Part shown: in pieces, positions 1-12,156 of the stretch | Layout: each line of letters begins with the position of its first letter | Numbering within the stretch: the stretch's first letter is position 1 | Assembly: GCA_043826455.1 (NCBI GenBank) | Contig: JBDRQD010000020.1 | Coordinates: 1 to 12,156 of the forward strand | Reading direction: 5' to 3' | From: Candidatus Bathyarchaeota archaeon | GTDB lineage: Archaea; Thermoproteota; Bathyarchaeia; TCS64 | Length of the DNA stretch: 12,156 nt | The notes under the pieces: generated by a model | Seen by the model: the letters and a program-made list of their open reading frames with translations, nothing else | Databases searched by the model: none | Told to the model about the DNA's origin: nothing | Position numbers and translations under genes: made by a program

Positions 1-768
1 AACCCCATCATTGACGGCTATCACCGCAAGAACGCTGATCCCGAGTGGCGTGAGGTGGTCCTTGAAGATATTGACAGTAAGGAGAAGTTTCTCAAGGCCC
101 GTATCATCGCCAACCTCCACAGGCGTACAGTCCCAGCCTCTGAAATTAAAGCCTGGGTCAACGAGTTAGCCGAATACGCTCTCATAGAGAAGGGTATTCA
201 GCCTGGTGAGATCAGCGGGTGGATCGCCGAAGAAACAGGATACTCGGAGAGACAAGTAAGAAGCTATCTTGATGAAAAATACAAAGACACATTACAAAGA
301 GAAAGGCGGTTAGGCAAGCCTCAGCCGGAGGAAATGACCGCCACCGCTGTTGAGCTTGACGCCATAGACAAACTAGGCCCCGACGGATATGACCAACTTC
401 GTCGTAAAATCGCTGAAGAGACCACCGAGTACATCGTAGAAACCTACGACATTCCAGACGAAATCGTGGATCAGATACTATACGAGGAAGAAGACGACCT
501 TGAGGAAACCCTGGAAACCGACACACAGAACGAGCTCAGACAGAGAGGCCAAGAGATCGGGGCTCAGATGAGGGAGGCCTTCAGCAGACTCGACACCCGC
601 CCCAACAAGCTACAGGAACGCTTCGCCCTCAAGGGCCGCCTCCTCATGATAGCCCACCAGCTGGAGAACCGCACCCTGTACCACCCCACAGACCCCCAGG
701 CCACCCTGATCTGGAGCAACGGCGACACCGTACAGAAAGCCCTAGAACTCCTGGAGGGCCTGCTGTGA
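1..768 (+). CDS. ParB/Srx-like N-terminal domain protein with HTH (5'-truncated)
   Basis: Frame 1 is open from base 1: NPIIDGYHRKNADPEW...IIANLHRR contains the ParB-type IIDGxHR motif and the NxxRR motif. It is followed by an HTH-like segment (WIAEETGYSERQVRSYL) and an acidic region. The ORF-track start at 55 is internal. Confidence 0.8.
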   Translation, partial: NPIIDGYHRKNADPEWREVVLEDIDSKEKFLKARIIANLHRRTVPASEIKAWVNELAEYALIEKGIQPGEISGWIAEETGYSERQVRSYLDEKYKDTLQRERRLGKPQPEEMTATAVELDAIDKLGPDGYDQLRRKIAEETTEYIVETYDIPDEIVDQILYEEEDDLEETLETDTQNELRQRGQEIGAQMREAFSRLDTRPNKLQERFALKGRLLMIAHQLENRTLYHPTDPQATLIWSNGDTVQKALELLEGLL

Positions 769-1412
769 GCTACATCAACATGATCCCCAGCAGCAGCCTC
801 TACATGCTCACCCAGTGGGACCCCGACCTAAAACTACAGGCCTTCAGAGGCTCAGGCAGCGCGGCAGGCGAAGCCACCAGCTGGGAGATCACCATGGGGG
901 ACACCACCATAGGCAAAGGGTCCACGGCCCAGACAGTCAAGGCCGACCTATTATACGAGTTCGGGGGCGGCGAGGTTCCGTTGAAGCAGGTCTACGAGTC
1001 CGTCAAAGAGAAAACAGGTTTACCCGACATAAGCCTGGACAGCTTCGTCTACGTTGACCGGGGCTGCAGGCTGGGAGTCCCCGAGTGGGGCACCACGGTG
1101 CGGAGTACCTTCAGGCGCAGAAGCCTCCACCCAGGTGTCTTCAAGCGCATGGCTGTGAACGGGCAGTACCCTCTCCAAGGCGTACACGTCATGCTGGATG
1201 AGATCAAGAGGAGCTTCGAGGCGTTGCCACAGGAAGTCAAGGTGAGGCTGAAGCCTAGCTGCCTCATCAGCGAGTACCACCCGGACATAAACGAAGATGG
1301 GCCCGCCGTCTACGCCTTGAAGCGCCCCTACATGGTGTTCATGAGCACCTCCTCCCGATTCTGGGAGCTGTTCGACATGGACTATAAACACAGAGGAGGC
1401 CCACCCACATGA
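765..1412 (+). CDS. Hypothetical protein (215 aa)
   Basis: GTG start overlaps the upstream stop (GTGA) with GGAGG just upstream; its own stop overlaps the next ATG (ATGA). No motif recognised. Confidence 0.75.
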   Translation: MSYINMIPSSSLYMLTQWDPDLKLQAFRGSGSAAGEATSWEITMGDTTIGKGSTAQTVKADLLYEFGGGEVPLKQVYESVKEKTGLPDISLDSFVYVDRGCRLGVPEWGTTVRSTFRRRSLHPGVFKRMAVNGQYPLQGVHVMLDEIKRSFEALPQEVKVRLKPSCLISEYHPDINEDGPAVYALKRPYMVFMSTSSRFWELFDMDYKHRGGPPT

Positions 1413-2545
1413 CTCAGGAGGCCCGTGACCTGGCCGTCAAGGAGCCTCAGAGCATAGCAGCAGGCGACCTTCTGCCCATCCTGGACCCGAAGGCCGCTGA
1501 GCGGGCGTACCACACTTACCTGAAGCTCTGCCAGGCCATACTAGTACCCTACGACAAGCGCATAGTCAAGGACGGGGTGGTGGTTCAGGAGTCGGATTAC
1601 GCCCGCATCCCCCAGCGGAAACAGGTGGCCGGGAAGTGGATCACCGAGTACGTGGACGCCCCCAAGAAATCGGCGTGGCGTAAGCTGGGCAGGTTCTACG
1701 GCGTCAGCACCGAGATCGTTGAGAAGACCAAGGAGCCCCACCCGGACGGTAGCTACACGTGGCACTACACCGTGAAGGCAACCGCCAGCGGCGTCACCCA
1801 GGACGGAGAGGGCAGCTGCACCAGCACCGAGAAGGGCGGCAAGTCTGAGCACGACACCCGGGCCACGGCCCACACCAGGGCCAAGAGCCGCGCCATCAGC
1901 GACCTCATAGGCTTCGGCCAGGTGAGCGCCGAGGAGTACCACAACTACGAGGAAGACGCCGAGCCCCGTAAACAGGTGGAAGCCGAGGCCAAGCCCGTGG
2001 AGCCTGAACGAAAGGGGAACGCCGCGCCAAACACCGCCAAGCCTGAGACACCCATCGTGGACCCGGCTGAGGAGACGGTGAAGGCCACCCTCACCGCCAA
2101 CGACCTGGACACCGACCACCTCCTCATCGTCCGGTACGGCAACGTGGTCAGGGTTGAGCCGGAAGAGGGATTCGGCGTCTGGGACGACTACGACCGCGTA
2201 CTCAAGCTCCTCAAGGCCAAGTGGAGCGACGAGGAGCTACGCTGGGAGATACCCGCCAAGAACCTGGAACACCTCACAGACGCCCCCGGGCCAGAGCCCG
2301 AGGAGCCGGTGTATGACATCTGGGCCATAGACTGGAAGCTGAAAGGCGGCGAATCCGCTCCACGGGGCACCAGCTGGGCTTGGGCCTTCGCCTACAATGA
2401 CGGCGACTACATACCCGAGATCAAGCCCCTCATCCAGTTCATCGAGCAGTACGGCCAGCTGGAGGCAGAGGGCTACACCGTCACCCTGGGAGGCCGAGAC
2501 AAGAACCTTCTCAACCTAAAGAAAAACAAGAAGGAGGCGAAGTGA
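1409..2545 (+). CDS. Probable Rad52/Rad22-superfamily single-strand annealing protein with C-terminal accessory domains
   Basis: Core reads KKSAWRKLGRFYGVS...YTVKATA...DGEGSC...HDTRATAHTRAKSRAISDLIGFGQVSAEE, matching the helix-strand-strand-helix pattern and A-x-TRA-xx-RA...SAEE signature of viral SSAPs. A Pro/Glu-rich linker and two small Trp-rich domains follow. SD GGAGG upstream. Confidence 0.65.
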   Translation: MTQEARDLAVKEPQSIAAGDLLPILDPKAAERAYHTYLKLCQAILVPYDKRIVKDGVVVQESDYARIPQRKQVAGKWITEYVDAPKKSAWRKLGRFYGVSTEIVEKTKEPHPDGSYTWHYTVKATASGVTQDGEGSCTSTEKGGKSEHDTRATAHTRAKSRAISDLIGFGQVSAEEYHNYEEDAEPRKQVEAEAKPVEPERKGNAAPNTAKPETPIVDPAEETVKATLTANDLDTDHLLIVRYGNVVRVEPEEGFGVWDDYDRVLKLLKAKWSDEELRWEIPAKNLEHLTDAPGPEPEEPVYDIWAIDWKLKGGESAPRGTSWAWAFAYNDGDYIPEIKPLIQFIEQYGQLEAEGYTVTLGGRDKNLLNLKKNKKEAK

Positions 2546-2850
2546 TGGTCCTAGCAGCCACAGCCCTGGAGATAGGCCTAGCCGAGGCCACAGGGAAAAG
2601 CGTGATGACTATCAGATACTCAGCCGCCAGGCTGCTCCTGGAGCTTCAGCTAGGCCGAGGGCTAACACCCAGGGAGGCATACAGGCTCACAGGCAAGATG
2701 TCCGACTCCTACCCCAGGATCAGAGGCCAGGGCTGCGTCTACATAGGTGAGACCCCGGAGCCCGACCACCTGGGAGCCCTAGAGGTCCTGAAGATCATCC
2801 AGCGAACAGGGATACTGGAGACCAACGAAGCGGAGGTGCCGAGGCCATGA
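2545..2850 (+). CDS. Hypothetical protein (~101 aa), possible HTH
   Basis: TGATG overlap at 2543-2547 with SD AAGGAGG at 2531-2537 (alternative GTG start at 2542). LTPREAYRLTG weakly resembles an HTH. Confidence 0.65.
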   Translation: MVLAATALEIGLAEATGKSVMTIRYSAARLLLELQLGRGLTPREAYRLTGKMSDSYPRIRGQGCVYIGETPEPDHLGALEVLKIIQRTGILETNEAEVPRP

Positions 2851-2957
2851 CCAGGTGCAACCGCCACGACCTAAGAGACCGGGATCTCGACCAACGCACC
2901 GTGTTCACCGACCAGCTAAACGAGAAACAGCCGCAAAAGGAGGGAGAAAATGGCTGA
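2847..2957 (+). CDS. Microprotein, 36 aa (MTRCNRHDLRDRDLDQRTVFTDQLNEKQPQKEGENG); not in ORF track
   Basis: ATG overlaps the upstream TGA (ATGA), with GGAGGTG upstream; its stop overlaps the next ORF. Confidence 0.5.
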   Translation: MTRCNRHDLRDRDLDQRTVFTDQLNEKQPQKEGENG

Positions 2958-3081
2958 AAAAACAGTGAAAAAACTCCCCCCATGCCCCTGGCCAGACAAC
3001 AAAGCCCCATACACCATACACCGAGTAGTGATACCACGGAAACTATCCCACGGCGGCTACTGGATGGAGGACCGATGGTGA
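2950..3081 (+). CDS. Microprotein, 43 aa (MAEKTVKKLPPCPWPDNKAPYTIHRVVIPRKLSHGGYWMEDRW); not in ORF track
   Basis: Strong SD AAGGAGGG just before ATG 2950; its TGA (3079-3081) overlaps the nuclease ATG (TGATG). Confidence 0.55.
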   Translation: MAEKTVKKLPPCPWPDNKAPYTIHRVVIPRKLSHGGYWMEDRW

Positions 3082-3740
3082 TGAGCGAAAAACTCCAAGT
3101 AATGCGAGACATAGCCACCTGGATCCTCCCCCACCGCTGGAACGTCTACTATAACCAGAGAAACGCGGACGGATACCCAACATTCACCGCCGACACCAAC
3201 AGCCGCCCGGACATGATGATCACCAAGAAAAACTACAGCATACTCATAGAGGTAAAACCATGCAGCGAACACCAGGACCTCCTCAACGGCTACGACCAGC
3301 TACTGAAATACGCGGGCGAATACTACAGCGGCCGAGTCACCTACAAAACAAACATAACAAGAAACATCAACGCCTTCGCATTAGCGACAAAGTACAGCCG
3401 AAACGGGTACCTGTACAGCAACGAAGCAAACACCGGCTTCGTAGACTACGTCGGGTACCTTGCCCAGCACCTGAATATGACTGAGAAGCCGATAACCTTC
3501 CTCTTCACACGTATGCTATGGCGGCAATGGGAGAAGGGCTATGCGTTTGAACATTACTCAAAGCTGAGACAAGGAGAATCCCGTGAAATAAACAGACTAC
3601 CCAAAAAGCCCTATGTAGGGGTACTAACAGCAAAGATACTATCAAACCGACAGATCGAGTCCACGCCATACCTATACCTTAACAGCAACAAGTTCATCCC
3701 CCTAAACCTCGACGAATTATACCTGTTCGAGGAGTCGTAA
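3081..3740 (+). CDS. PD-(D/E)xK (restriction-endonuclease-fold) nuclease, ~219 aa
   Basis: RPDMMI...ILIEVK followed by a QxxxY helix (DQLLKY). Start placed at ATG 3081 (TGATG coupling, GGAGG at 3066-3070); 3075 and 3078 are alternatives. Stop overlaps the primpol start (TAATG). Confidence 0.75.
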   Translation: MSEKLQVMRDIATWILPHRWNVYYNQRNADGYPTFTADTNSRPDMMITKKNYSILIEVKPCSEHQDLLNGYDQLLKYAGEYYSGRVTYKTNITRNINAFALATKYSRNGYLYSNEANTGFVDYVGYLAQHLNMTEKPITFLFTRMLWRQWEKGYAFEHYSKLRQGESREINRLPKKPYVGVLTAKILSNRQIESTPYLYLNSNKFIPLNLDELYLFEES

Positions 3741-4813
3741 TGGACCCCCGACCAGAGACGCTTCTAGTCTTCACCGACTGCCTCCTAGACGACGCACCAC
3801 CCACATATGTTCCCTGGCTTTTCAGGTGCGGTAGACACAGCAAAGCCCCGGCCACCGAGTACGGGTCATGGAAGGACACCAAGAACAGGCTAACCGTTGA
3901 CCAGGCCGTGGAGTGGATGCTGGAGGGCGGCAACGTAGGCATAGCCGGTATGCCCGATGACCCGCTAGTCAACGTGGACATTGACGACGGCGAAGTAACC
4001 CGGAAAGAGGACCTGGCCCCAACACTCATGTCCAGATCCCGCAGCCGAACAGGCATCCACGGCTTCTACTTCTCATGGGACAACATCCCAAACATTCCGA
4101 CAGATAACGCCGGGGAGGTACGCAGCCGAGGCCAGTACGTAGTAGCCCCAGGCAGCTACGTGGCCACGGACCCCGAGACCGTGCCCGAGAACCAGCGCCG
4201 AGACGCGGGCTATTACACTGTCGAGGAGGCCCGCCCGCCGGCGTGGATCACGTACCAGGACCTCCCAGAGATATTCAGAAAGACCTATGAAAAGAACAGG
4301 ACAGAGGAACCCCGACAGCCGACACGGTTTGACCCCAAGAAAGCCGGCGGAAGCTATTCCGCCCTCTTCGATGTCAAAGCCATAGACATAATACGGCATG
4401 AAGGAAAACCGGCGGAGCCAAACAGACGATGGGGGAGCCTATTCCACGACAGCACCACCGAGGCCAACATGAGCCTCAGCACCAAGGGACTCCTACACTG
4501 CTGGCGACACAACGTAACCCACAACGGCCTCCAGGCCCTCACCGTACTCAGCGGATACATGACGTGCCAGGAAGCCGGGACACCGCACCGAGGCACGGCG
4601 GGCTCATCCAGAGTCGTAGGCGACGACGGAGCAGTATTCCACGCCTGGCTCTACGCCAAGAAACACGGCTACATACCCGGAGACGACCCAATACCCGTCC
4701 GCGCCCTGAACCATATCGCTCAGAAGCACTTGGGTTACGAGGCCAAGAAAAACAAGCTACTGCCCAGCGATGTTTACCGCCGCGTACTGGAAATCGTGGA
4801 GGCCGACTACTGA
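3740..4813 (+). CDS. Bifunctional DNA primase-polymerase (Prim-Pol, AEP superfamily) with putative C-terminal Zn-binding region
   Basis: Characteristic Prim-Pol motifs: K-x-P, GNVGIA, LVNVDID (DxD), SRSRTGIHGFYF (catalytic His) and GEVRSRGQYVVAPGS. The C-terminal FHDS...LHCWRH...C segment resembles primase Zn-binding motifs. Confidence 0.88.
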   Translation: MDPRPETLLVFTDCLLDDAPPTYVPWLFRCGRHSKAPATEYGSWKDTKNRLTVDQAVEWMLEGGNVGIAGMPDDPLVNVDIDDGEVTRKEDLAPTLMSRSRSRTGIHGFYFSWDNIPNIPTDNAGEVRSRGQYVVAPGSYVATDPETVPENQRRDAGYYTVEEARPPAWITYQDLPEIFRKTYEKNRTEEPRQPTRFDPKKAGGSYSALFDVKAIDIIRHEGKPAEPNRRWGSLFHDSTTEANMSLSTKGLLHCWRHNVTHNGLQALTVLSGYMTCQEAGTPHRGTAGSSRVVGDDGAVFHAWLYAKKHGYIPGDDPIPVRALNHIAQKHLGYEAKKNKLLPSDVYRRVLEIVEADY

Positions 4814-6519
4814 TGGTTAAGACAGGGCGAAAAAAACCCAGAAAAAACGCCATGTCCCAGGTGCTGGAGCTCCTTGAAAACAAGTACGTGTTCGCAACTC
4901 CAGACGACATCGAGGTTCTATACCTCTACAAGGACGGCGTGTACATCCCTGGTGAAACCACAGTAAAGGCAGCCGTCGAAGAGATCCGGGGCGACGATAC
5001 TGATACCAGTTTCTGCAACGAAGTCATAAACCACTTCAAACGCAGGTCCTACACCCCAAGAACTGCTTTCAACCACTTTAAGGGCGAGATCCCTGTACTC
5101 AACGGCCTCCTCAACCTAGAAACCATGCAACTACGGGACTTCGACCCGAAGAAAATATTCACCTATAAAATAAACACCAGATTCCATCCAGACAAAGACT
5201 GCCCCCAGTTTAAAGCAGCCCTCAACCAGATCCTGCCCAAAGAAGACGAGCAAGCCCTACTGCAAGAATACGCCGGCTACACGCTGTGGCCCGAGTTCCC
5301 ACACCACAAGTTCATAGTCTTCATCGGAGTAGGCCGCAACGGTAAAGGCGTCATCATAAGGACAATAGTAGGGATCCTAGGTCAAGACAACGTCAGCAAC
5401 ATTCGGCTAGAGCACCTGGACGGCAGCCACAGGTTCATGGTACCCAACCTCTTCGGGAAGCTGATGAACGTATGCTCCGAACCATCCACACGAAGACCCT
5501 TCAAAACGGAGCTCCTGAAACAGATCACTGGACAGGACACCCTGGATGGGGAGATCAAGGGCAAGCAAAACCCCCTCAGATTCATACCCTTCACCAAGTT
5601 CTTCGTCCAAGCGAACAAGCTCCCCGTGGTCGACGACACAACCCTATCGTTCTGGGACAGGATAAACATAATCGAGTTCACGGAAACATTCACCGACGAG
5701 AAGGGAAACAAAACCGCTGAAATCGAGAGCATGTGGCTATGTGATGAGGATGAACGAAGCGGCATCCTAAACTGGATGATCGAGGGCCTGAAAAGACTCA
5801 AAGAGAAAGGCCAGTTCACACAAACGAAGTCAATGGATCAGCAGATCCTGAAATTCAAGCAAGCAAGCGACCCTGTAGGCGCGTTCCTCACCGACCCCCA
5901 AGAATGCATGTACGGAGCCAATCAGTGGGTGACGCGCAACGACCTGTACAACGCCTACAAGGAGTACGCAGAAACCATAGGCACAAAAATCGAAACCACT
6001 GGAGTATTTGCTGAACGCATAAAACGGCTGCCGGGTGTAAAAACAAGGCAAAAAAGAGTCAAAGGAACAACTGAGCGAATCTGGACAGGGATCAGTATAA
6101 GAAAAAAGGAAACCGCACTAGAGGACTACGAGGAAGAAAAGACACCTGAACACGAAAGTGAAGCAGATGAAGCAGATGAAACACCCTTTTCCCTCCGAGA
6201 AAATGAAAATAATAATAATATAAAGGGGGGGGATATACCTGCTTCACCTGCTTCACCTGCTTCATTTTACCCTCTCCGGCAGGAGACCCCCAAGCCGGGG
6301 CTAACACAGGACACCCCGAGGGACACGATAGACCCCGATAAACTACGCATCGGTGAGATCGCGGCCCTCATCGCCAAAAACAGCGGCAAGCACACCACGG
6401 ACAACATAGCGTACAGGTTCAACGGCATATCCCGCCAGGTCTTAGACAAGCTGCTGGCCCGGGCCGCCGAGGTGGGGCTAGTCTACGTGGACACCGAGGG
6501 GAGGTGGTTCAAGCGGTGA
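4813..6519 (+). CDS. SF3 helicase, D5/phage-plasmid primase P4 C-terminal family (568 aa), with an extra C-terminal wHTH
   Basis: D5_N-like region (LYLYKDGVY...IPVLNGLLNLET...FTYKI), Walker A GVGRNGKG, Walker B LMNVCSE, LKQITGQD, motif C FVQANKLP, FWDRINIIEF and D5-type wHTH (NDLYNAYKEY). The start is likely ATG 4813 (TGATG overlap with the primpol stop), not 4429. Confidence 0.9.
   Translation: MVKTGRKKPRKNAMSQVLELLENKYVFATPDDIEVLYLYKDGVYIPGETTVKAAVEEIRGDDTDTSFCNEVINHFKRRSYTPRTAFNHFKGEIPVLNGLLNLETMQLRDFDPKKIFTYKINTRFHPDKDCPQFKAALNQILPKEDEQALLQEYAGYTLWPEFPHHKFIVFIGVGRNGKGVIIRTIVGILGQDNVSNIRLEHLDGSHRFMVPNLFGKLMNVCSEPSTRRPFKTELLKQITGQDTLDGEIKGKQNPLRFIPFTKFFVQANKLPVVDDTTLSFWDRINIIEFTETFTDEKGNKTAEIESMWLCDEDERSGILNWMIEGLKRLKEKGQFTQTKSMDQQILKFKQASDPVGAFLTDPQECMYGANQWVTRNDLYNAYKEYAETIGTKIETTGVFAERIKRLPGVKTRQKRVKGTTERIWTGISIRKKETALEDYEEEKTPEHESEADEADETPFSLRENENNNNIKGGDIPASPASPASFYPLRQETPKPGLTQDTPRDTIDPDKLRIGEIAALIAKNSGKHTTDNIAYRFNGISRQVLDKLLARAAEVGLVYVDTEGRWFKR
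6159..6264. repeat. Inverted 9-bp iteron arrays flanking an AT-rich spacer; candidate replication origin
   Basis: Left: TGAAGCAGA x2 plus degenerate TGAAACACC (6159-6185). Right: CCTGCTTCA x3 (6238-6264), whose reverse complement is TGAAGCAGG. The spacer contains AAAATGAAAATAATAATAATATAAA and a G8 run. Confidence 0.7.
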
Positions 6520-6905
6520 CCTCAGGGTTTGCCTTACTTGACGTTTCTGAAATGAAACATCTGTTGACTGACAAACAATACGTCGTCATGAGTTGGGGGA
6601 ACGAAGACGGGTTCTATCAATATTTAGAAGAAAAGTACTTCACGCCAGGAACCCCCAGAAACGCCGAGTTTGAAATCGTGATAGGGCCCATAAATACTTC
6701 TAATGGGCATAAAATGAGTTTCTGGGTCAGAATAAAGAGGACAAAACTCAACGAGGCTTACCTCTTTGCTGCACTACAGGAGTTTTACAATCTTCCTCTA
6801 AAAAGATCGGACTTCAAAAAGAGACTGAAAAAAATAAGAGATGAGATTAACTCAAACATACCGACCTGGTTTAGCTTTGAACAACCCAAGGAGGCGAAGC
6901 CATGA
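6516..6905 (+). CDS. Hypothetical protein (~129 aa), low GC
   Basis: GTG 6516 overlaps the helicase stop (GTGA), with an alternative ATG at 6552; its stop overlaps the next ATG. Confidence 0.65.
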   Translation: MTSGFALLDVSEMKHLLTDKQYVVMSWGNEDGFYQYLEEKYFTPGTPRNAEFEIVIGPINTSNGHKMSFWVRIKRTKLNEAYLFAALQEFYNLPLKRSDFKKRLKKIRDEINSNIPTWFSFEQPKEAKP

Positions 6906-7159
6906 GTCTGGCGCTGAGCCTGAAGACGCCGGAGGAGATACGCCCCGGCGAGGTAGTATCCTACTGGGAGCAGCTGGCCGAGCGCACCCCTCACGACTGC
7001 TACGCCGTCTACCGGAGCCCAAACCGCGAGCTCCGGGCCTGGGTAGACGAGGCAACGACCACCGTCGCCCTCATGTGGAACGTACACACCGGTCAGGTCC
7101 ACCAGGTAGACACGAAGGCCCTGTACCCACTCATCAGCAAGCTAGGAGGCTGGATATAG
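6902..7159 (+). CDS. Hypothetical protein (85 aa)
   Basis: ATGA overlap with the upstream stop, SD AAGGAGG at 6888-6894; abuts the next gene. Confidence 0.7.
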   Translation: MSLALSLKTPEEIRPGEVVSYWEQLAERTPHDCYAVYRSPNRELRAWVDEATTTVALMWNVHTGQVHQVDTKALYPLISKLGGWI

Positions 7160-7465
7160 GTGAGCCGAAAAAGATTGACCTGGTATGAGACAAGGGCCAG
7201 AATCCTTAACGTGATTAGAGAAGCGGGCTCTATATCTCAATACAAACTGGTAAAAAAGGCGGGGGTAGCCCCCAACAGCGTCTTCAAGTACGTCAAAATG
7301 CTTAACGCTGAAGGTCTTATCCGCCTCGAACATGAGCCGTGCTCGCGCAGCCTCACAGGTGTAAAAAGTATCTGGGTGATCACCCCCAGGGGCATGGTGA
7401 ATAGTTGCCCCTTATGCGGCCACCCCATAGAGGCCGCTAACCCTGAAGGAGGCTGGATAGGGTGA
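7160..7465 (+). CDS. Winged-helix DNA-binding protein with a C-terminal CPxCG motif
   Basis: RARILNVIREAGSISQYKLVKKAGVAPNSVFKYVKMLNAEGLI...IWVITPRG is a typical ArsR/MarR-like wHTH pattern; tail contains CPLCGHP. Confidence 0.8.
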   Translation: MSRKRLTWYETRARILNVIREAGSISQYKLVKKAGVAPNSVFKYVKMLNAEGLIRLEHEPCSRSLTGVKSIWVITPRGMVNSCPLCGHPIEAANPEGGWIG

Positions 7466-7611
7466 GGTGTGAGGTTTGCCCGTACAGGGTGACCCCGTTC
7501 TTCTTCTGCTCCAGGCTGAGGCAGCCCCTGGACGACGGCAAGACGGTGATCCAGGGCTGCAACGTAGACGGAGAGATGGACTGGGTGGAGGATGAGGGAA
7601 ATGAGTCGTAG
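7462..7611 (+). CDS. Cys4 microprotein, 49 aa (MRCEVCPYRVTPFFFCSRLRQPLDDGKTVIQGCNVDGEMDWVEDEGNES); not in ORF track
   Basis: GTGA overlap with the wHTH stop, SD AGGAGG at 7447-7452, CxxC-x9-C-x16-C pattern; stop TAG 7609-7611 overlaps the next ORF. Confidence 0.65.
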   Translation: MRCEVCPYRVTPFFFCSRLRQPLDDGKTVIQGCNVDGEMDWVEDEGNES

Positions 7612-7780
7612 CCTGGAGGTGGCCGCCATGTGGGTGCCCGAGAGGTTCTGCGCCCACTGCCTATGGATACGTGACTACTGCGGCCGGTACGTGTGCTACG
7701 CCGGTGGCCAGGTGGGCCGCACCGTCCGGGGTGACGAGGACGCCACATTCTGCCAGGAATACGAGGAGGCGGTGAGATGA
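7601..7780 (+). CDS. Cys-rich microprotein (59 aa), probable Zn-binding
   Basis: CAHC...C...C...C pattern; GGAGG at 7587-7591 favours ATG 7601 over 7592; ATGA overlap with the next gene. Confidence 0.65.
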   Translation: MSRSLEVAAMWVPERFCAHCLWIRDYCGRYVCYAGGQVGRTVRGDEDATFCQEYEEAVR

Positions 7781-8172
7781 CTCCTGGGACTATTTGCTTT
7801 GACCTCGACGGCGTACTTGCCGAGTACGACGGGTGGAGAGGCCCCAGCCACATAGGGAAGCCTATCCCCGAGGGGGTTGATCTCGCCAAGCGCCTGCGAG
7901 AGCTAGGCTTCCAAATCATCATCTTCACGTGCCGCCTTAACGGCCAGTGGCCCGGGGTTGACTACCAGAAGATCAAGCGCCAGGTTGAGGAGTGGCTGGA
8001 CGCCCACGGGGTGCCCTATGACAGAGTGGCCACCCAGGTGGATGGGAAGCCCTTCGCAGACGCCTACGTGGACGACCGGGCCATACACTTCCCCGCGAAC
8101 AGGGGTCCGGCGGCACCCGTCCTCGCGCAGCTGCTCAGGCTTCTATATTGGGAGGTGGCTGAAAGTGACTAG
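7777..8172 (+). CDS. Cap-less HAD-superfamily phosphohydrolase
   Basis: Motif I FDLDGVL (DxD), motif II IFTCR, motifs III/IV GKP-x-AD-x-YVDDRA. Confidence 0.85.
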   Translation: MTPGTICFDLDGVLAEYDGWRGPSHIGKPIPEGVDLAKRLRELGFQIIIFTCRLNGQWPGVDYQKIKRQVEEWLDAHGVPYDRVATQVDGKPFADAYVDDRAIHFPANRGPAAPVLAQLLRLLYWEVAESD

Positions 8173-8965
8173 GTACGTTCCCCTTAACCACTTCCGGCGC
8201 AGCGCCGGCAACATGTTTGAGTCAGTGGACTACACGTTCACCTACTATCAGGGCTGCGGCTACGACAGGGTATTTTACCCATGCCCCGTGTGCTGGGCCC
8301 AGTTCCTACCCTGGGGCACCGTAGGCCACGAGGCCAGGCTAGTCTGGGAGGACCCGGAGGCCCTGATACCGCCCACCATAAGGGACGCCGTGATCTTCAT
8401 GAACAGCGCCCACGACTGGCTAGCCCCACGCATCCCCGACCAGTGGATCAGGGACATGATCAGGTGGATGAGCCGCCAGGACCCCAGCATCAGGTTCTAC
8501 CTCCAGAGCAAGTTCCTACCAAGAGCCCGGAGCTTCATGGACGAGCTCTACCCGCTCAGGAACCGGGTGATCATGGGTACCACCCTCATGACCACCAGCC
8601 AGAGCCTCCTAGATGACACCGGGTTCAAGGTGACCCCAATCAAAGACCTCTACGGCGCCCTGGCCTTCTTCAGTGACGCTGGGTTCAGGATCCGGCTGAG
8701 CCTGGAGCCCCTGTACAGCTTCAACCCAGGCATCATGGCCGACAGGGTACGCCGCCTCCGGCCCGAGGTGGTGGAGGTGGGCCTAGACAACTACCTGGAC
8801 AGGCACCGCCTACCCATACCTCAGCCGTCCAGGGAGAGCGTCAGGCTGCTCCTCCAGACGCTGGCGCCCCTCACCAACACTAGGATGGTCCTGAAGAAGG
8901 GCATGAAGCGGTGGCTAGGCGAGCCGGATCAGCCCCAAGCCGAGGAGGAGGCCGAGGTATGGTGA
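8165..8965 (+). CDS. DUF5131 (phage Gp37/Gp68)-like radical-SAM-related Fe-S protein (~266 aa)
   Basis: GNMFESVDYTFTYYQGC-x8-C-x2-CWA, IFMNSAHDW, FYLQSK, GTT and LSLEPL match the DUF5131/SPL-like motif series. Start at GTG 8165 with SD GGAGGTGG upstream; the 7958 start in the ORF track overlaps the HAD gene. Confidence 0.7.
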   Translation: MTRYVPLNHFRRSAGNMFESVDYTFTYYQGCGYDRVFYPCPVCWAQFLPWGTVGHEARLVWEDPEALIPPTIRDAVIFMNSAHDWLAPRIPDQWIRDMIRWMSRQDPSIRFYLQSKFLPRARSFMDELYPLRNRVIMGTTLMTTSQSLLDDTGFKVTPIKDLYGALAFFSDAGFRIRLSLEPLYSFNPGIMADRVRRLRPEVVEVGLDNYLDRHRLPIPQPSRESVRLLLQTLAPLTNTRMVLKKGMKRWLGEPDQPQAEEEAEVW

Positions 8966-9198
8966 CCGTGGAGAGGGAGCTTGTGGAGGTCTACCGAGGC
9001 CAGCTTCTACGGGTGGCCGAGGCCGGGGACCTCTCCGGGCTAGGCGCGGAGGACCAGGCCGTACTCCGCGAGGCCGGGGTCCTGGTGGAGTACCTGGACT
9101 GGAAATGCGGCGGCACCTACACAGGCCTCAGCCCAGGGGCCCGCCGCATGGCGCTGGGGCTGCCCAGGGCCAGGATCATCAGGTGGAGGACCGGATAG
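8959..9198 (+). CDS. Hypothetical protein (79 aa), possible degenerate wHTH
   Basis: ATG 8959 (or GTG 8962) overlaps the upstream stop after GAGGAGGAGG; LREAGVL...TYTGLSPGARR resembles a wHTH wing. Confidence 0.6.
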   Translation: MVTVERELVEVYRGQLLRVAEAGDLSGLGAEDQAVLREAGVLVEYLDWKCGGTYTGLSPGARRMALGLPRARIIRWRTG

Positions 9199-9226: not shown

Positions 9227-9520
9227 ATGACCGTCAACGAGGCTTTCATCCTGGAGCCTGTGGACACCAAGGCGTCACGGTTCGCCGTGGTGGTGGTGTA
9301 CCACGACGCCCGGGTGATCCCGCGGGTGGAGAAACTCATGGGGAGGCATGGGAAGATCAAGTCCCGGACCTATCACTCCGTTGAGGACCGCTACGATAAC
9401 CCCGTAGACAGGATAGGAATATATGTTTTAGAAGATGTAGTGAGTGATAGGGCCATAAAAAGCATATTGAAAAACATTGAAACATCAGGCGACATACAGA
9501 GTGTAATGTTAAAGTGTTGA
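9227..9520 (+). CDS. Hypothetical protein (97 aa), possible ACT/ferredoxin-like fold
   Basis: SD GGAGGAG before the ATG. The sequence pattern suggests beta-alpha-beta-beta-alpha-beta (FAVVVVYHD / VIPRVEKLMGRHG / ... / IKSILKNIE..GDIQSV); the fold is inference only. Confidence 0.65.
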   Translation: MTVNEAFILEPVDTKASRFAVVVVYHDARVIPRVEKLMGRHGKIKSRTYHSVEDRYDNPVDRIGIYVLEDVVSDRAIKSILKNIETSGDIQSVMLKC

Positions 9521-9529
9521 ATTAAAAGT

Positions 9530-9558
9530 CTGTGAAGGGTATATTAATTCTTTCACGG
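9530..9558 (+). promoter_or_regulatory. Candidate archaeal TATA-type promoter (TATATTAA, 9540-9547) inside an imperfect palindrome
   Basis: Lies in the only sizeable intergenic gap and is AT-rich; purine-rich GAAGGG precedes the TATA-like box; GTGAA (9532-9536) and TTCAC (9552-9556) flank it. Confidence 0.45.
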
Positions 9559-9571
9559 CACAGCCCCCTGA

Positions 9572-9675
9572 TTCAGTTGACTGCGGGGAGCCATGTTAAA
9601 CCTGTTTTTCCTTCCGTTAGTCACGTCTTTGCTTCTCAGGGTCGCCGCAGCCAGCTTGAACACAAGGAGGAAAAA
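9572..9675 (+). ncRNA. Candidate structured 5' leader (long stem plus loop/SD pairing)
   Basis: TTCAGTTGACTGCGG (9572-9586) pairs with CCGCAGCCAGCTTGAA (9645-9660). Loop segment TTTTTCCTTCC (9605-9615) is complementary to GGAGGAAAAA (9666-9675). Confidence 0.4.
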
Positions 9676-9680
9676 GAAAA

Positions 9681-10580
9681 GTGAAACAGAGTCAAAACCA
9701 TGCAGCCAAGCACCTAGCAGTCGCAGCCATCGCAATCATGCTCCTGGCCCCCATGATGCTCACAGGCGTCGTGGTGCCCGTCGAGGGAGCCGCAGCCCGC
9801 GTATACTTCGCGGCGGCCAGCCCAGACAAGAGCGGCTACGCCGTAGACGAGGCGGTGAAGATCAACGTCAAGTTCAAGTGGGAGGGCCTGTCAGCCAACA
9901 CGACGGTGGCTATCGAGCTCTGGAACAGCACCGAGGTCATGGAGGACCTGGGCGACTACAAGGCCCCCGGAGCCATCCTAGCCAGCGGTACAGCGACAGT
10001 CCAGTACACGCCCACAGTTGACCTCACCGAGGAGACAGGCACCAAGACCTACAACCTCAAGATGCTGAGCGGAGGCATCGTGGTTGACAGCGCCAACGTC
10101 GTCATCGTCGTGGCGGCGGGCCAGATCACCATGAGCGTCACCTGGCAGGACCAGAACAACGACAGAGTCGTGGACGTGAACGAGCTTGTCACCTTCACCG
10201 CCTACGTCAACTGGGCCTTCGTGGAGACCACGGAGAGCCACAGCCTGTACGTGAACTACGGCGAGGGGGAGAAGCTGCTGAGCAGCATAAGCGTCACGGC
10301 GGGCAGCGGGAGCCAGACGGTTACGGACAGCCACGGCTTCAGCTCCGCCGGCGCCAAGGCGGTCGCCTTCACATTGAAGGACGCCACCGGCACCACGGTC
10401 AAGACCTCGACGGCCGCCATCAGCGTAGGGGCAGCGGCCCCGACGCCACAGGCCCCAGCGCAGACGAGCATCGTGGGCATCATCACGGCTAACTGGCAGA
10501 TACTGGCTATACTGGTCGCGGCGGGCGCCATCGGCTACGTGTACCTGGGCGACGGCAACAAGAGGAAGCGCGGGAAGTAG
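9681..10580 (+). CDS. Secreted, C-terminally membrane-anchored protein with two Ig-like beta-sandwich repeats (candidate virion spike or surface protein)
   Basis: SD AAGGAGG at 9664-9670; N-terminal hydrophobic signal; Thr/Val/Ser-rich beta pattern; sequons NTT and NST; Pro/Ala linker; TM helix (WQILAILVAAGAIGYVYL) and basic tail KRKRGK. Confidence 0.8.
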   Translation: MKQSQNHAAKHLAVAAIAIMLLAPMMLTGVVVPVEGAAARVYFAAASPDKSGYAVDEAVKINVKFKWEGLSANTTVAIELWNSTEVMEDLGDYKAPGAILASGTATVQYTPTVDLTEETGTKTYNLKMLSGGIVVDSANVVIVVAAGQITMSVTWQDQNNDRVVDVNELVTFTAYVNWAFVETTESHSLYVNYGEGEKLLSSISVTAGSGSQTVTDSHGFSSAGAKAVAFTLKDATGTTVKTSTAAISVGAAAPTPQAPAQTSIVGIITANWQILAILVAAGAIGYVYLGDGNKRKRGK

Positions 10581-10592
10581 GAGGTCCAAGTC

Positions 10593-11369
10593 ATGAACAA
10601 GGACCGTAAACTACTCCTAGTCGGCCTATTCATCGCCCTGCTGGCCATCGGCTGGATAGCGCTGACGCCCATCGTGGTGACGGGGGCCAGGGTCCAGGGA
10701 TCAGGCTCCGCCGAGGCCACCACCCCCTACGGGGAGAGCATCAGCATCAGGATCGGCAGCGGAACCAGCACCAGCGGCCAAGCCAGCGTCATAGACTTCG
10801 TGATGCCCGCCTCGTGGCTGGCCTACGTGGGCGGCGACACCCAGGACGTCTACGACGTGGACGGCGCCTATAAGAGCCAGGAGCAGGTCACCCTCAGCTA
10901 CAGCCTCAGCGTCACCTACAGCAACGTCAACACCATCAAGGCCACCGTCAAGATCAAGGCCACAGACAACGCCGACCAGAGCATGTACGAGTACACCCTA
11001 GCGACCCAGAAAGCCCTCTCAGGCGCCTCACCCATAGCTGACAATGGCCAGGTCCAGAAGAGCATCACCGACCACCTAACCGAGATAACAGCGTCAACAA
11101 CTGGTGCGACAGTCAAGTACGAGATATACTGCCAGGTCACAGGCACCGGAGCCACGTCGGGCGAGACCCTGACGGCAACCGTCGCCTACACACAGTTCGG
11201 GCAGATGGTCTACACCAGGACCACTGAATCTAGCAGCGCCGACGTCACGCCCACGGTTAGCGTAGCCAGCTGGGTGGACGACGCGCTTGGGTTGCCGGAT
11301 GGAACCATATTCGCCGTCGCCGCCATCGTCCTTGTAGGGGTAGCCTACAAGGTGGTGAAGCAGCGGTGA
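10593..11369 (+). CDS. Beta-rich exported protein with N-terminal signal/TM and C-terminal TM anchor
   Basis: SD GGAGGT at 10580-10585; MNKDRK followed by a hydrophobic stretch; Thr/Ser-rich ectodomain; C-terminal IFAVAAIVLVGVAY followed by KVVKQR. Confidence 0.8.
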   Translation: MNKDRKLLLVGLFIALLAIGWIALTPIVVTGARVQGSGSAEATTPYGESISIRIGSGTSTSGQASVIDFVMPASWLAYVGGDTQDVYDVDGAYKSQEQVTLSYSLSVTYSNVNTIKATVKIKATDNADQSMYEYTLATQKALSGASPIADNGQVQKSITDHLTEITASTTGATVKYEIYCQVTGTGATSGETLTATVAYTQFGQMVYTRTTESSSADVTPTVSVASWVDDALGLPDGTIFAVAAIVLVGVAYKVVKQR

Positions 11370-11659
11370 ACCCCCTTTTTTCTCATTTAGTATCATCGGC
11401 GGCTGAGGCAGGCAGCGTCACCGAGGTGTTCGCCATCCTCGCCGCAGCCGCGGTCGGGCTCTTCGCCTTCTACAAGCTTGGGACGGTGGAGAGCGTCATC
11501 AAGACCATCATCACGGTGGTCTTATTCATCGGCGGCCTGTACGCCGCCGGGTATGCCTTCCCGTCCATCCAGGAGGCGGGTTGGTACCAGCTCATCGCGT
11601 GGGTCGTTGAGGTGGGGCCCAGACTGATCCTGGAGCAACTTGGAGGAACAAAATCATGA
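11366..11659 (+). CDS. Small membrane protein (97 aa, 2 TM plus amphipathic tail)
   Basis: GTGA overlap with the upstream stop; hydrophobic helices VFAILAAAAVGLFAFY and IITVVLFIGGLYAAGYAF. Confidence 0.7.
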   Translation: MNPLFSHLVSSAAEAGSVTEVFAILAAAAVGLFAFYKLGTVESVIKTIITVVLFIGGLYAAGYAFPSIQEAGWYQLIAWVVEVGPRLILEQLGGTKS

Positions 11660-12156
11660 TCGCGGGAATACTTTTAGCGGCTCTTCTCGGAGCCGGCGGC
11701 CTCATCTACCTGGTCCAGCTAGGCGGGTCAACCCCGGCCATAGTCGAGACCATAGTCTCACCTCTCACCATATCGGTGGAGAGGCTGTTCACCATCCTGG
11801 GGACCCTGGCGCCGCTTCTCGTCGCCGTGGTGCCTCTCTACCTGGTGCTGAACGCCAAGAGCCTTGGTAAAGATAGGAAGCAGATGATAGTCTTCGGCGC
11901 CGTGTTCGGGCTGGCCCTCTACGGCATCGCCATCTTCACGGGCCTGGACACGCTTCTAGCCCAGGAGATGCGGGGCAGCTTCATGGTGGGTAGCACCCTC
12001 GGCATGGCCGTCACCACCCTGGGGGCCGCCGCCGAGTGGGTCATCGGCCTCTTCACGGGGCTTCTGCTCTGGGGGGCAGGCTTAGCACTTGTAATCATCG
12101 GGGGCTTCCTTGACGCCCTGATAGGCGTCGGGGAGGCAGCCAGGCACGGTAAACGC
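11656..12156 (+). CDS. Polytopic Gly/Ala/Leu-rich membrane protein (3'-truncated, at least 167 aa); not in ORF track
   Basis: ATG 11656 overlaps the upstream TGA, with GGAGG at 11642-11646. The frame is open to the window end (MIAGILLAALLGAGGLIYLVQLGG...WVIGLFTGLLLWGAGLALVIIGGFLDALIGVGEAARHGKR) with about 4-5 hydrophobic segments. Confidence 0.8.
   Translation, partial: MIAGILLAALLGAGGLIYLVQLGGSTPAIVETIVSPLTISVERLFTILGTLAPLLVAVVPLYLVLNAKSLGKDRKQMIVFGAVFGLALYGIAIFTGLDTLLAQEMRGSFMVGSTLGMAVTTLGAAAEWVIGLFTGLLLWGAGLALVIIGGFLDALIGVGEAARHGKR

Follow-up and report, generated by a model that had tools for sequence, protein, structure and literature searches.

Among the described systems, the pT26-2 family of Thermococcales and Methanococcales is closest in architecture to the locus studied here. 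The accessible part of the source gives a size of 17–38 kb, about 12 syntenic genes (nine with transmembrane (TM) helices), one HerA/B204-like ATPase and exchangeable replicons (PMC6972569). Pleolipoviridae and Thalassapleoviridae (HRPV-3, His2, AvPV1) are small integrating elements of similar size, in which a block of membrane-protein genes ends in an NTPase gene; the pleolipovirus spike family is named as a hallmark in the accessible sections of PMC10919331. PAV1 has a long run of membrane-protein genes ahead of its ATPase gene, and related ATPases occur on pTN2-family plasmids. For Bathyarchaeia, four virus families have been proposed (Fuxi-, Kunpeng-, Chiyou- and Huangdiviridae), which as far as the available text of the source goes have hallmarks of their own (PMC10541130). 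Here we analyze a stretch of 12,156 nucleotides from Candidatus Bathyarchaeota archaeon (the window), which is the whole of contig JBDRQD010000020.1 of assembly GCA_043826455.1 and ends in four membrane-protein genes, gA to gD.

We read the window as a piece of a temperate element that integrates into genomes of Bathyarchaeia and of which this genome contains several divergent copies. The analysis shows a fixed gene block that encodes membrane proteins, a CPBP intramembrane protease, a compact FtsK/HerA ATPase and a tyrosine recombinase; the replication genes can be exchanged, and integration is site-specific in a complete relative. We infer from the genes alone, with a probability of about 0.55, that the block belongs to a temperate capsid-less enveloped virus or a vesicle-borne element. 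Below, the source genome is called G000 and its contigs carry C numbers (the window is C20). Loci of the block family carry L numbers; L001, L007 and L008 are C11, C36 and C37 of G000.

Four membrane-protein genes at the end of the window

The four genes are neighboring open reading frames (ORFs) on the + strand, and all of them encode TM segments, as the original prediction had stated:

9681-10580, + strand: gA, 299 amino acids (aa); N-terminal hydrophobic segment at residues 14-32, C-terminal TM segment at 264-282
10593-11369, + strand: gB, 258 aa; TM segments at 7-25 and 237-255
11366-11659, + strand: gC, 97 aa; TM segments at 17-35 and 44-62, an invariant Lys at the turn and an amphipathic tail
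11656->12156, + strand: gD, four TM segments and a basic C-terminal tail; cut by the contig end (full copies have 184-187 aa) and continued in C8/C49

A to D are real genes, because they have homologues (57 for A, 89 for B) and because third codon positions vary most in all four when they are compared with the copy on C52. One doubtful protein from L045 was taken into alignment A3, and alignment A6 includes three divergent rows. No Pfam, PHROG or NCBIfam family matches A to D above the cut-off.

The original prediction described gA and gB as beta-rich ectodomain proteins with C-terminal anchors. For gA this holds with respect to the anchor: it is a type I membrane protein with a probable cleavable signal peptide, and its family carries 3.5 N-glycosylation sequons on average. 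An Ig-like or beta ectodomain is predicted for gA from CARDB clusters in the ESM Atlas, a lead whose score of 0.86 lies below the bar of 0.9. For gB it is the beta structure that holds and the anchoring that has to be revised: the AlphaFold2 model (predicted local distance difference test (pLDDT) 79.9) shows two TM helices and between them a beta-sandwich whose stem strands are long, and the protein is anchored at both ends. gB is also paralogous to the N-terminal half of the downstream protein F.

Foldseek finds no match to the gB model at E<=0.001 in PDB or BFVD, and the ESM Atlas leads lie below the bar. The best VIA match is the porin MspA (Z 9.8, root-mean-square deviation (rmsd) 4.0, 121 aligned, 7% identity); generic Ig-like matches reach 7–8.4, and we treat the likeness of the model to MspA as probably that of any beta-sandwich. 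Pleolipovirus spikes and jelly-roll capsids are not among the best 50 VIA matches listed for gB, which excludes nothing. With regard to Varidnaviria, the matches of B are Ig-like sandwiches, and an FtsK/HerA packaging-type ATPase is present in the block. The smaller proteins are as predicted, gC with two TM segments and gD polytopic; gC is a candidate matrix, pilin-like or capsid-like subunit.

The genes start a conserved block on integrated elements

A conserved block of about 12–15 genes merely begins with A to D, and the proposed four-gene operon owes its size to the contig end within gD. The last 133 nt of the window overlap contigs C8 and C49, which carry further block genes, and C52 has the same ending. 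Because C20 and C52 share this end with both contigs, the continuation of our copy is not assignable to C8 or C49. Genes of the A family are found on C20, C52, C1, C36 and C37, D also on C45, and G000 holds at least four divergent copies of the block.

The gene order, taken from C1, C8, C49, C7, C45, C11 and C13, is A, B, C, D, a protein with an arginine-rich leader, E, the CPBP protease, a small TM protein, F, G, H, I, a giant soluble protein, further leader proteins, the FtsK/HerA ATPase and a small tyrosine recombinase. E is anchored, F joins a B-like domain to a variable head, G is a paralogue of E, and H consists of an ectodomain, three TM segments and a cytoplasmic tail. The downstream ATPase that had been suggested as something to look for is thus present, and it is of FtsK/HerA type.

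The family comprises 71 loci, near-duplicates included, of which 67 come from metagenomes and 4 from genomes. Because three of the latter are titled Bathyarchaeota or Bathyarchaeia, we infer Bathyarchaeia as the host class. B was called in 70 of the 71 loci, and synteny around it was scored only where the contig has room. By this count, all 56 scorable loci have A upstream of B, 36 of 38 have C or D downstream of it and 10 of 10 have the CPBP gene downstream of it; no orthologue stands outside the block context in the loci examined. The distribution is patchy: of 401 genomes of the class, 7 have B (two of them as weak partial matches), and in a phylum sample 2 of 401 do. Chromosomal orthologues outside mobile elements, named at the outset as evidence against a virion module, were hence not what we found.

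A complete 13.8-kb copy in genome G154 (C2, 209929-223704) lies between perfect 32-bp direct repeats, to which the end of a tRNA close by is 85% identical; it carries an integrase and consists almost entirely of the block. L049 is apparently a whole copy as well (about 17 kb, between host-like genes). Attachment sites were not found for the G000 copies, and none was seen for L049. Replication genes vary between copies: a primpol and an SF3 helicase in C20, a different 752-aa protein in C52, TFB and a 636-aa protein in C36 and none recognized in G154. They are exchangeable, and the pairing of the block with primpol-SF3, on which the original prediction had built, is incidental.

A short tyrosine-recombinase-like gene (190-260 aa) lies 3' of the ATPase gene in four elements (L001:8747-9370, L074:15522-16094, L106:13848-14510 and L103:9852-10640); in G154 it is present alongside the separate integrase. 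Some block genes are fused, D with E in L049 (11116-12582) and F with H in L074 (10111-12618) and G154 (L103:4966-7374). These fusions suggest that D, E, F and H act together. Directly upstream of the block, L049 has an inserted Fic-family gene (L049:7910-8836).

A head-tail module in the flanks would have made these genes accessory, as morons of a head-tail provirus; another accessory role would be that of a cassette for the cell surface or for adhesion. Two lone terminase-like genes exist elsewhere in G000 (C18:5109-6533 and C38:51009-52505), but they stand amid host-like genes on contigs without any block family, and portal has no match anywhere in the genome. Terminase (PF03237) and portal (PF04860) have no match in the G154 genome or on the G000 block contigs, PHROG families for terminase, portal or HK97 capsid do not occur among window or block membrane proteins, and no head-tail module is found on the downstream contigs or in the complete relative. 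Family scans of the window likewise found no capsid, portal or terminase, as had been noted. The complete G154 element, being nearly all block, largely refutes an accessory role, which we regard as very improbable.

The ATPase is related to those of viruses and plasmids

Each element encodes one ATPase of 250-400 aa. Its model (pLDDT 87.3) is compact and of FtsK/HerA type, with a C-terminal helix-turn-helix (HTH). In BFVD the halovirus PH1 ATPase matches best (E 8.4e-11), A32-type packaging and corticovirus ATPases come next, and weak matches to terminase families cover a short stretch only.

Judged by sequence, PAV1/pTN2, pleolipoviruses and TPV1 have ATPases that are related to the block ATPases. 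Of the 70 members of the family, 64 match the PHROG family to which PAV1 ORF375 belongs, and the profile of the main family matches ORF375 and pTN2 gene 8 at about 1e-12 and TPV1 weakly. The L074 ATPase matches ORF375 (E 4e-21) and pTN2-type plasmids (E 3e-26). That of L082 matches the pleolipovirus NTPase family (E 7e-23), and 11 of 11 matches in a phage collection are pleolipoviruses; the main family matches this NTPase weakly only and is closer to ORF375. A tblastn search with the main family gave no match in phages or plasmids. A tree built from 20 rows has long branches and leaves 8 of its 17 inner branches open. According to the available portion of PMC3543421, ORF375 sits in the plasmid-like half of PAV1, apart from the virion genes, and it is therefore weaker as a virion marker.

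One could also argue for a divergent spindle-shaped virus after the manner of PAV1, TPV1 or fuselloviruses: gC would be its major capsid protein, with two helices, and A, B, E, F and G would serve in the tail or in adhesion. The two hydrophobic helices of gC with their short turn, the ATPases and the run of membrane-protein genes shared with PAV1 are consistent with this. However, gC has no match to PAV1 ORF121, the small membrane proteins of TPV1, PHROG families (E<0.01) or solved capsid proteins. Of the four families, its own is also conserved least, with a mean column identity of 23% (43-53% for A, B and D), and no VP1-3 set like that of Huangdivirus, as outlined in the accessible part of PMC10541130, is recognized. 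Nor does the block match ORF121, ORF676/678, ORF137, ORF180b or ORF293 of PAV1, and unlike PAV1 its elements integrate; comparisons of H with ORF293, of I with ORF137 and of A with H are not significant. A spindle-shaped virus is hence improbable.

A protease, a recurrent motif and an arginine-rich leader

The protease of the block matches Pfam PF02517 (Rce1-like) over the cut-off (E 2e-7), and of 20 sequences, 19 have an intact EExxR motif, 17 an intact FxxxH and 20 an intact HxxxN. Ahead of the C-terminal anchor, an A-S-W/F-type motif occurs in 46 of the 51 representatives of F, in E (24/27), G (4/4) and, by pattern, B (43/86), against 2 of 55 in A and 1 of 34 host C-anchored proteins; the counts are not independent, since B and F as well as E and G share domains and the sequences are related. 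By column (n=86), the B motif has Ala in 77, Ser in 72 and Trp in 49 sequences, and inspection by eye finds it kept in 13 of 14 distant representatives of B. In gB the conserved A-S-W sites fall at residues 73-75 and 225-227, both in low-confidence, unstructured segments of the model. The motif is a candidate for a signal recognized by the element-encoded CPBP protease, which would cleave there; in E and G it could simply be the last beta-strand.

In the known CPBP sorting systems (MYXO-, JDVT-, Synerg- and CGP-CTERM), a CPBP glutamic protease likewise occurs alongside proteins that end in a motif, a TM helix and a basic tail. Their known signals contain an invariant Cys, whereas the block motif is A-S-W/F, often with a spacer, and belongs to a mobile element. 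CPBP enzymes have been proposed as sortases for Cys-containing signals in the accessible part of an earlier study (10.1101/2023.06.07.544157).

An arginine-rich N-terminal leader is common to otherwise differing soluble proteins, and all nine of its nine six-frame matches in the genome lie on block contigs. The leader may be a packaging or secretion tag. One leader protein has 1700 aa and ends in a PCNA-like domain. Giant soluble block proteins (970-1700 aa) are encoded at L001:1104-6218 (C11), L006:925-5931 and L015:9352-12264; of three that were scanned, two end in a PCNA-like domain (NCBIfam, E 1e-5 to 1e-7), and those of C11 and C13 also carry an HExxH motif.

Other features of the window and the genome

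The remaining features of the window lie upstream of gA:

9521..9680, + strand: promoter and leader of the block, a 160-bp gap with a TATA-like box at 9537-9547 and a Shine-Dalgarno sequence at 9664-9670
9227..9520, + strand: 97-aa gene, often directly upstream of gA in related elements (17 members)
4813..6519, + strand: SF3/D5-like helicase, exchangeable replication module (family scans)
3740..4813, + strand: Prim-Pol protein, exchangeable replication module (PF09250, E 4e-5)
1..9198, + strand: variable early region of the integrated element, with regulators, a HAD-like protein and a DUF5131-like protein, partly common to the C52 and C36 copies

The gap before gA had been called the only promoter-like one. 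It does hold a TATA-like box, but it is not alone: the gene calls leave two further gaps (2851-3074 and 6520-6901), which hold short or low-scoring ORFs. A possible stem in the leader (9572-9585/9646-9660) ends just 5' of the Shine-Dalgarno sequence. In nine close sequences 107 of 126 cells pair, vs 27-50 when slid, with the structure derived from those same sequences; in six other rows 40 of 84 cells pair. RNAalifold gives no consensus structure for 15 sequences, the single sequence has a z of +1.13, and no Rfam family matches. We regard the stem as a weak lead.

In the early region, the protein at 1409-2545 is common to C20, C52, C36 and C26 and weakly matches a PHROG family of unknown function. 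By motif it resembles single-strand annealing proteins. The C36 copy encodes a TFB-like transcription factor (L007:10047-10985) and a Dam-like methylase. A repeat of about 250 bp, similar to a miniature inverted-repeat transposable element, is found at L008:1-260 (C37) and on many host contigs, with dozens of genome sites at 72-91% identity. C67:30000-36200 and C10:1-9100 are other small integrated elements without the membrane block; the former has a short recombinase and neighboring genes in common with C11. A simple scan of the G000 genome found no CRISPR array. Seven short contigs come from RNA runs and are not counted as expression evidence.

Discussion

How close is the element to a pleolipovirus? 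The L082 ATPase is a clear family relative, and the main family shares the layout of an ATPase with a C-terminal HTH. The block, known here from its genes, differs in its doubly anchored beta-sandwich protein B, its CPBP protease and its arginine-leader proteins, and none of 52 block proteins has a PHROG match to VP3-like or ORF6/ORF7-like proteins. Profiles of A, B, C, D, E, F, H and I match none of the HRPV-3, His2, TPV1 or PAV1 proteins tested; the G profile (four sequences) gives one weak match, His2 ORF26 (E 1e-4 in a set of 30 proteins). B and the HRPV-3 spike compare at E 0.77. D against HRPV-3 VP1 (E 0.075) and H against ORF4 (E 0.25 over 89 columns, with a similar layout) concern small TM proteins, which are hard to test. 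The element may, by analogy, work like a pleolipovirus; since the spike family is not found, it is not classifiable as one of the Pleolipoviridae.

Several results weigh against a virus or vesicle-borne element. First, the VP4-like spike family phrog_2231, which includes the HRPV-3 spike, has no match in G000 while the positive control in Haloferax does match, and no VP4-like fusogen is found among the 52 block proteins at the level of sequence profiles. Second, a terminal repeat is absent in 16 of 16 long loci, and two pattern scans found no relatives of B in IMG/VR. Third, PAV1-type ATPases also occur on pTN2 plasmids, and among solved structures HerA, VirB4 and TrwB (Z 18-21.6) fit the block ATPase no less well than viral B204 does (Z 17.4, rmsd 3.3, 199 aligned). 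The fold therefore cannot separate packaging from conjugation. Finally, the motif counts come from related proteins, and the Trp of B is kept in just 49 of 86.

Ced and Ted are DNA transfer systems, and VirB2 is a pilin. The block could correspondingly be a minimal apparatus for transfer of DNA or protein between cells, carried by an integrative plasmid, as proposed for the pT26-2 family or Ced/Ted. C would then be pilin-like, D and H a channel and B a ring, while the ATPase would pump DNA and the arginine leader would be a secretion signal. The shared architecture argues for this: like pT26-2, as described in the accessible part of PMC6972569, the elements have a syntenic TM-rich core, one HerA/B204-like ATPase and exchangeable replication and integration modules. 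The tie in ATPase fold, the plasmid homologues, the porin as best structural match of B and the missing B matches in IMG/VR point the same way. The two families are likened by description only; their hosts differ, and profiles of A, B, C, D, H and the ATPase matched no pT26-2 chain among solved structures (core set t26-5p, 6p, 7p, 11p, 13p, 14p and 15p). However, VirB4 (TIGR00929) has no match over the cut-off in G000 or G154, and no relaxase family scores above the cut-off among the scanned proteins, including those of complete and near-complete copies, where a novel relaxase could escape. Each element has a single ATPase of modest length, the MspA score hardly exceeds that of the generic matches, and several variable surface proteins fit an extracellular particle better. 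We consider a transfer apparatus rather unlikely.

The original prediction of a virion-envelope, vesicle or transfer module thus stands as far as a conserved mobile block without head-tail genes is concerned, and is not supported where it drew on pleolipovirus spike and matrix or spindle capsid proteins, for which no homology was found. The proposed viruses of Bathyarchaeia share the host class, and Huangdivirus is also a provirus with an ATPase; they carry head-tail, Adnaviria or fusellovirus-like VP1-3 hallmarks, going by the available text of PMC10541130, and none of these is recognized in the block. We found no description of the block in the literature, including the accessible parts of PMC12934983, PMC13573593 and 10.64898/2026.02.13.705702; supplements are outside this statement, and such elements may be present, unnamed, among the 56 genomes in PMC10541130 or in the tables of PMC13573593.

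We return to the reading that we prefer, an enveloped virus without a capsid or an element spread in vesicles. Once the element had excised and replicated, the block would build a DNA particle that has a membrane envelope but no capsid and leaves the cell by budding, as in pleolipoviruses, with different proteins. A, B, E, F and G would form the surface layer, in which B is conserved and F bears a variable receptor-binding head. C and D would be matrix proteins, and H and I would link the membrane to the ATPase. The arginine-leader soluble proteins would be co-packaged with the DNA, and the CPBP protease would mature B, E, F and G at A-S-W/F sites. That all this adds up to a new archaeal virion, with surface proteins unlike known fusogens, matured by a sortase-like CPBP enzyme at A-S-W/F, and with an arginine leader that loads swappable cargo, including the PCNA-bearing giant protein, is a tentative proposal, and we would not yet bet on it.

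Bathyarchaeia are abundant in sediments, and the block family is recurrent in them, with several copies per genome possible. That scans of IMG/VR miss it is probably because it has no capsid hallmarks. With the block, the question of how integrative archaeal elements rich in TM proteins, such as pT26-2, move can be put to a concrete set of genes, and the block predicts a new membrane-entry protein as well as a testable pair of protease and substrate.

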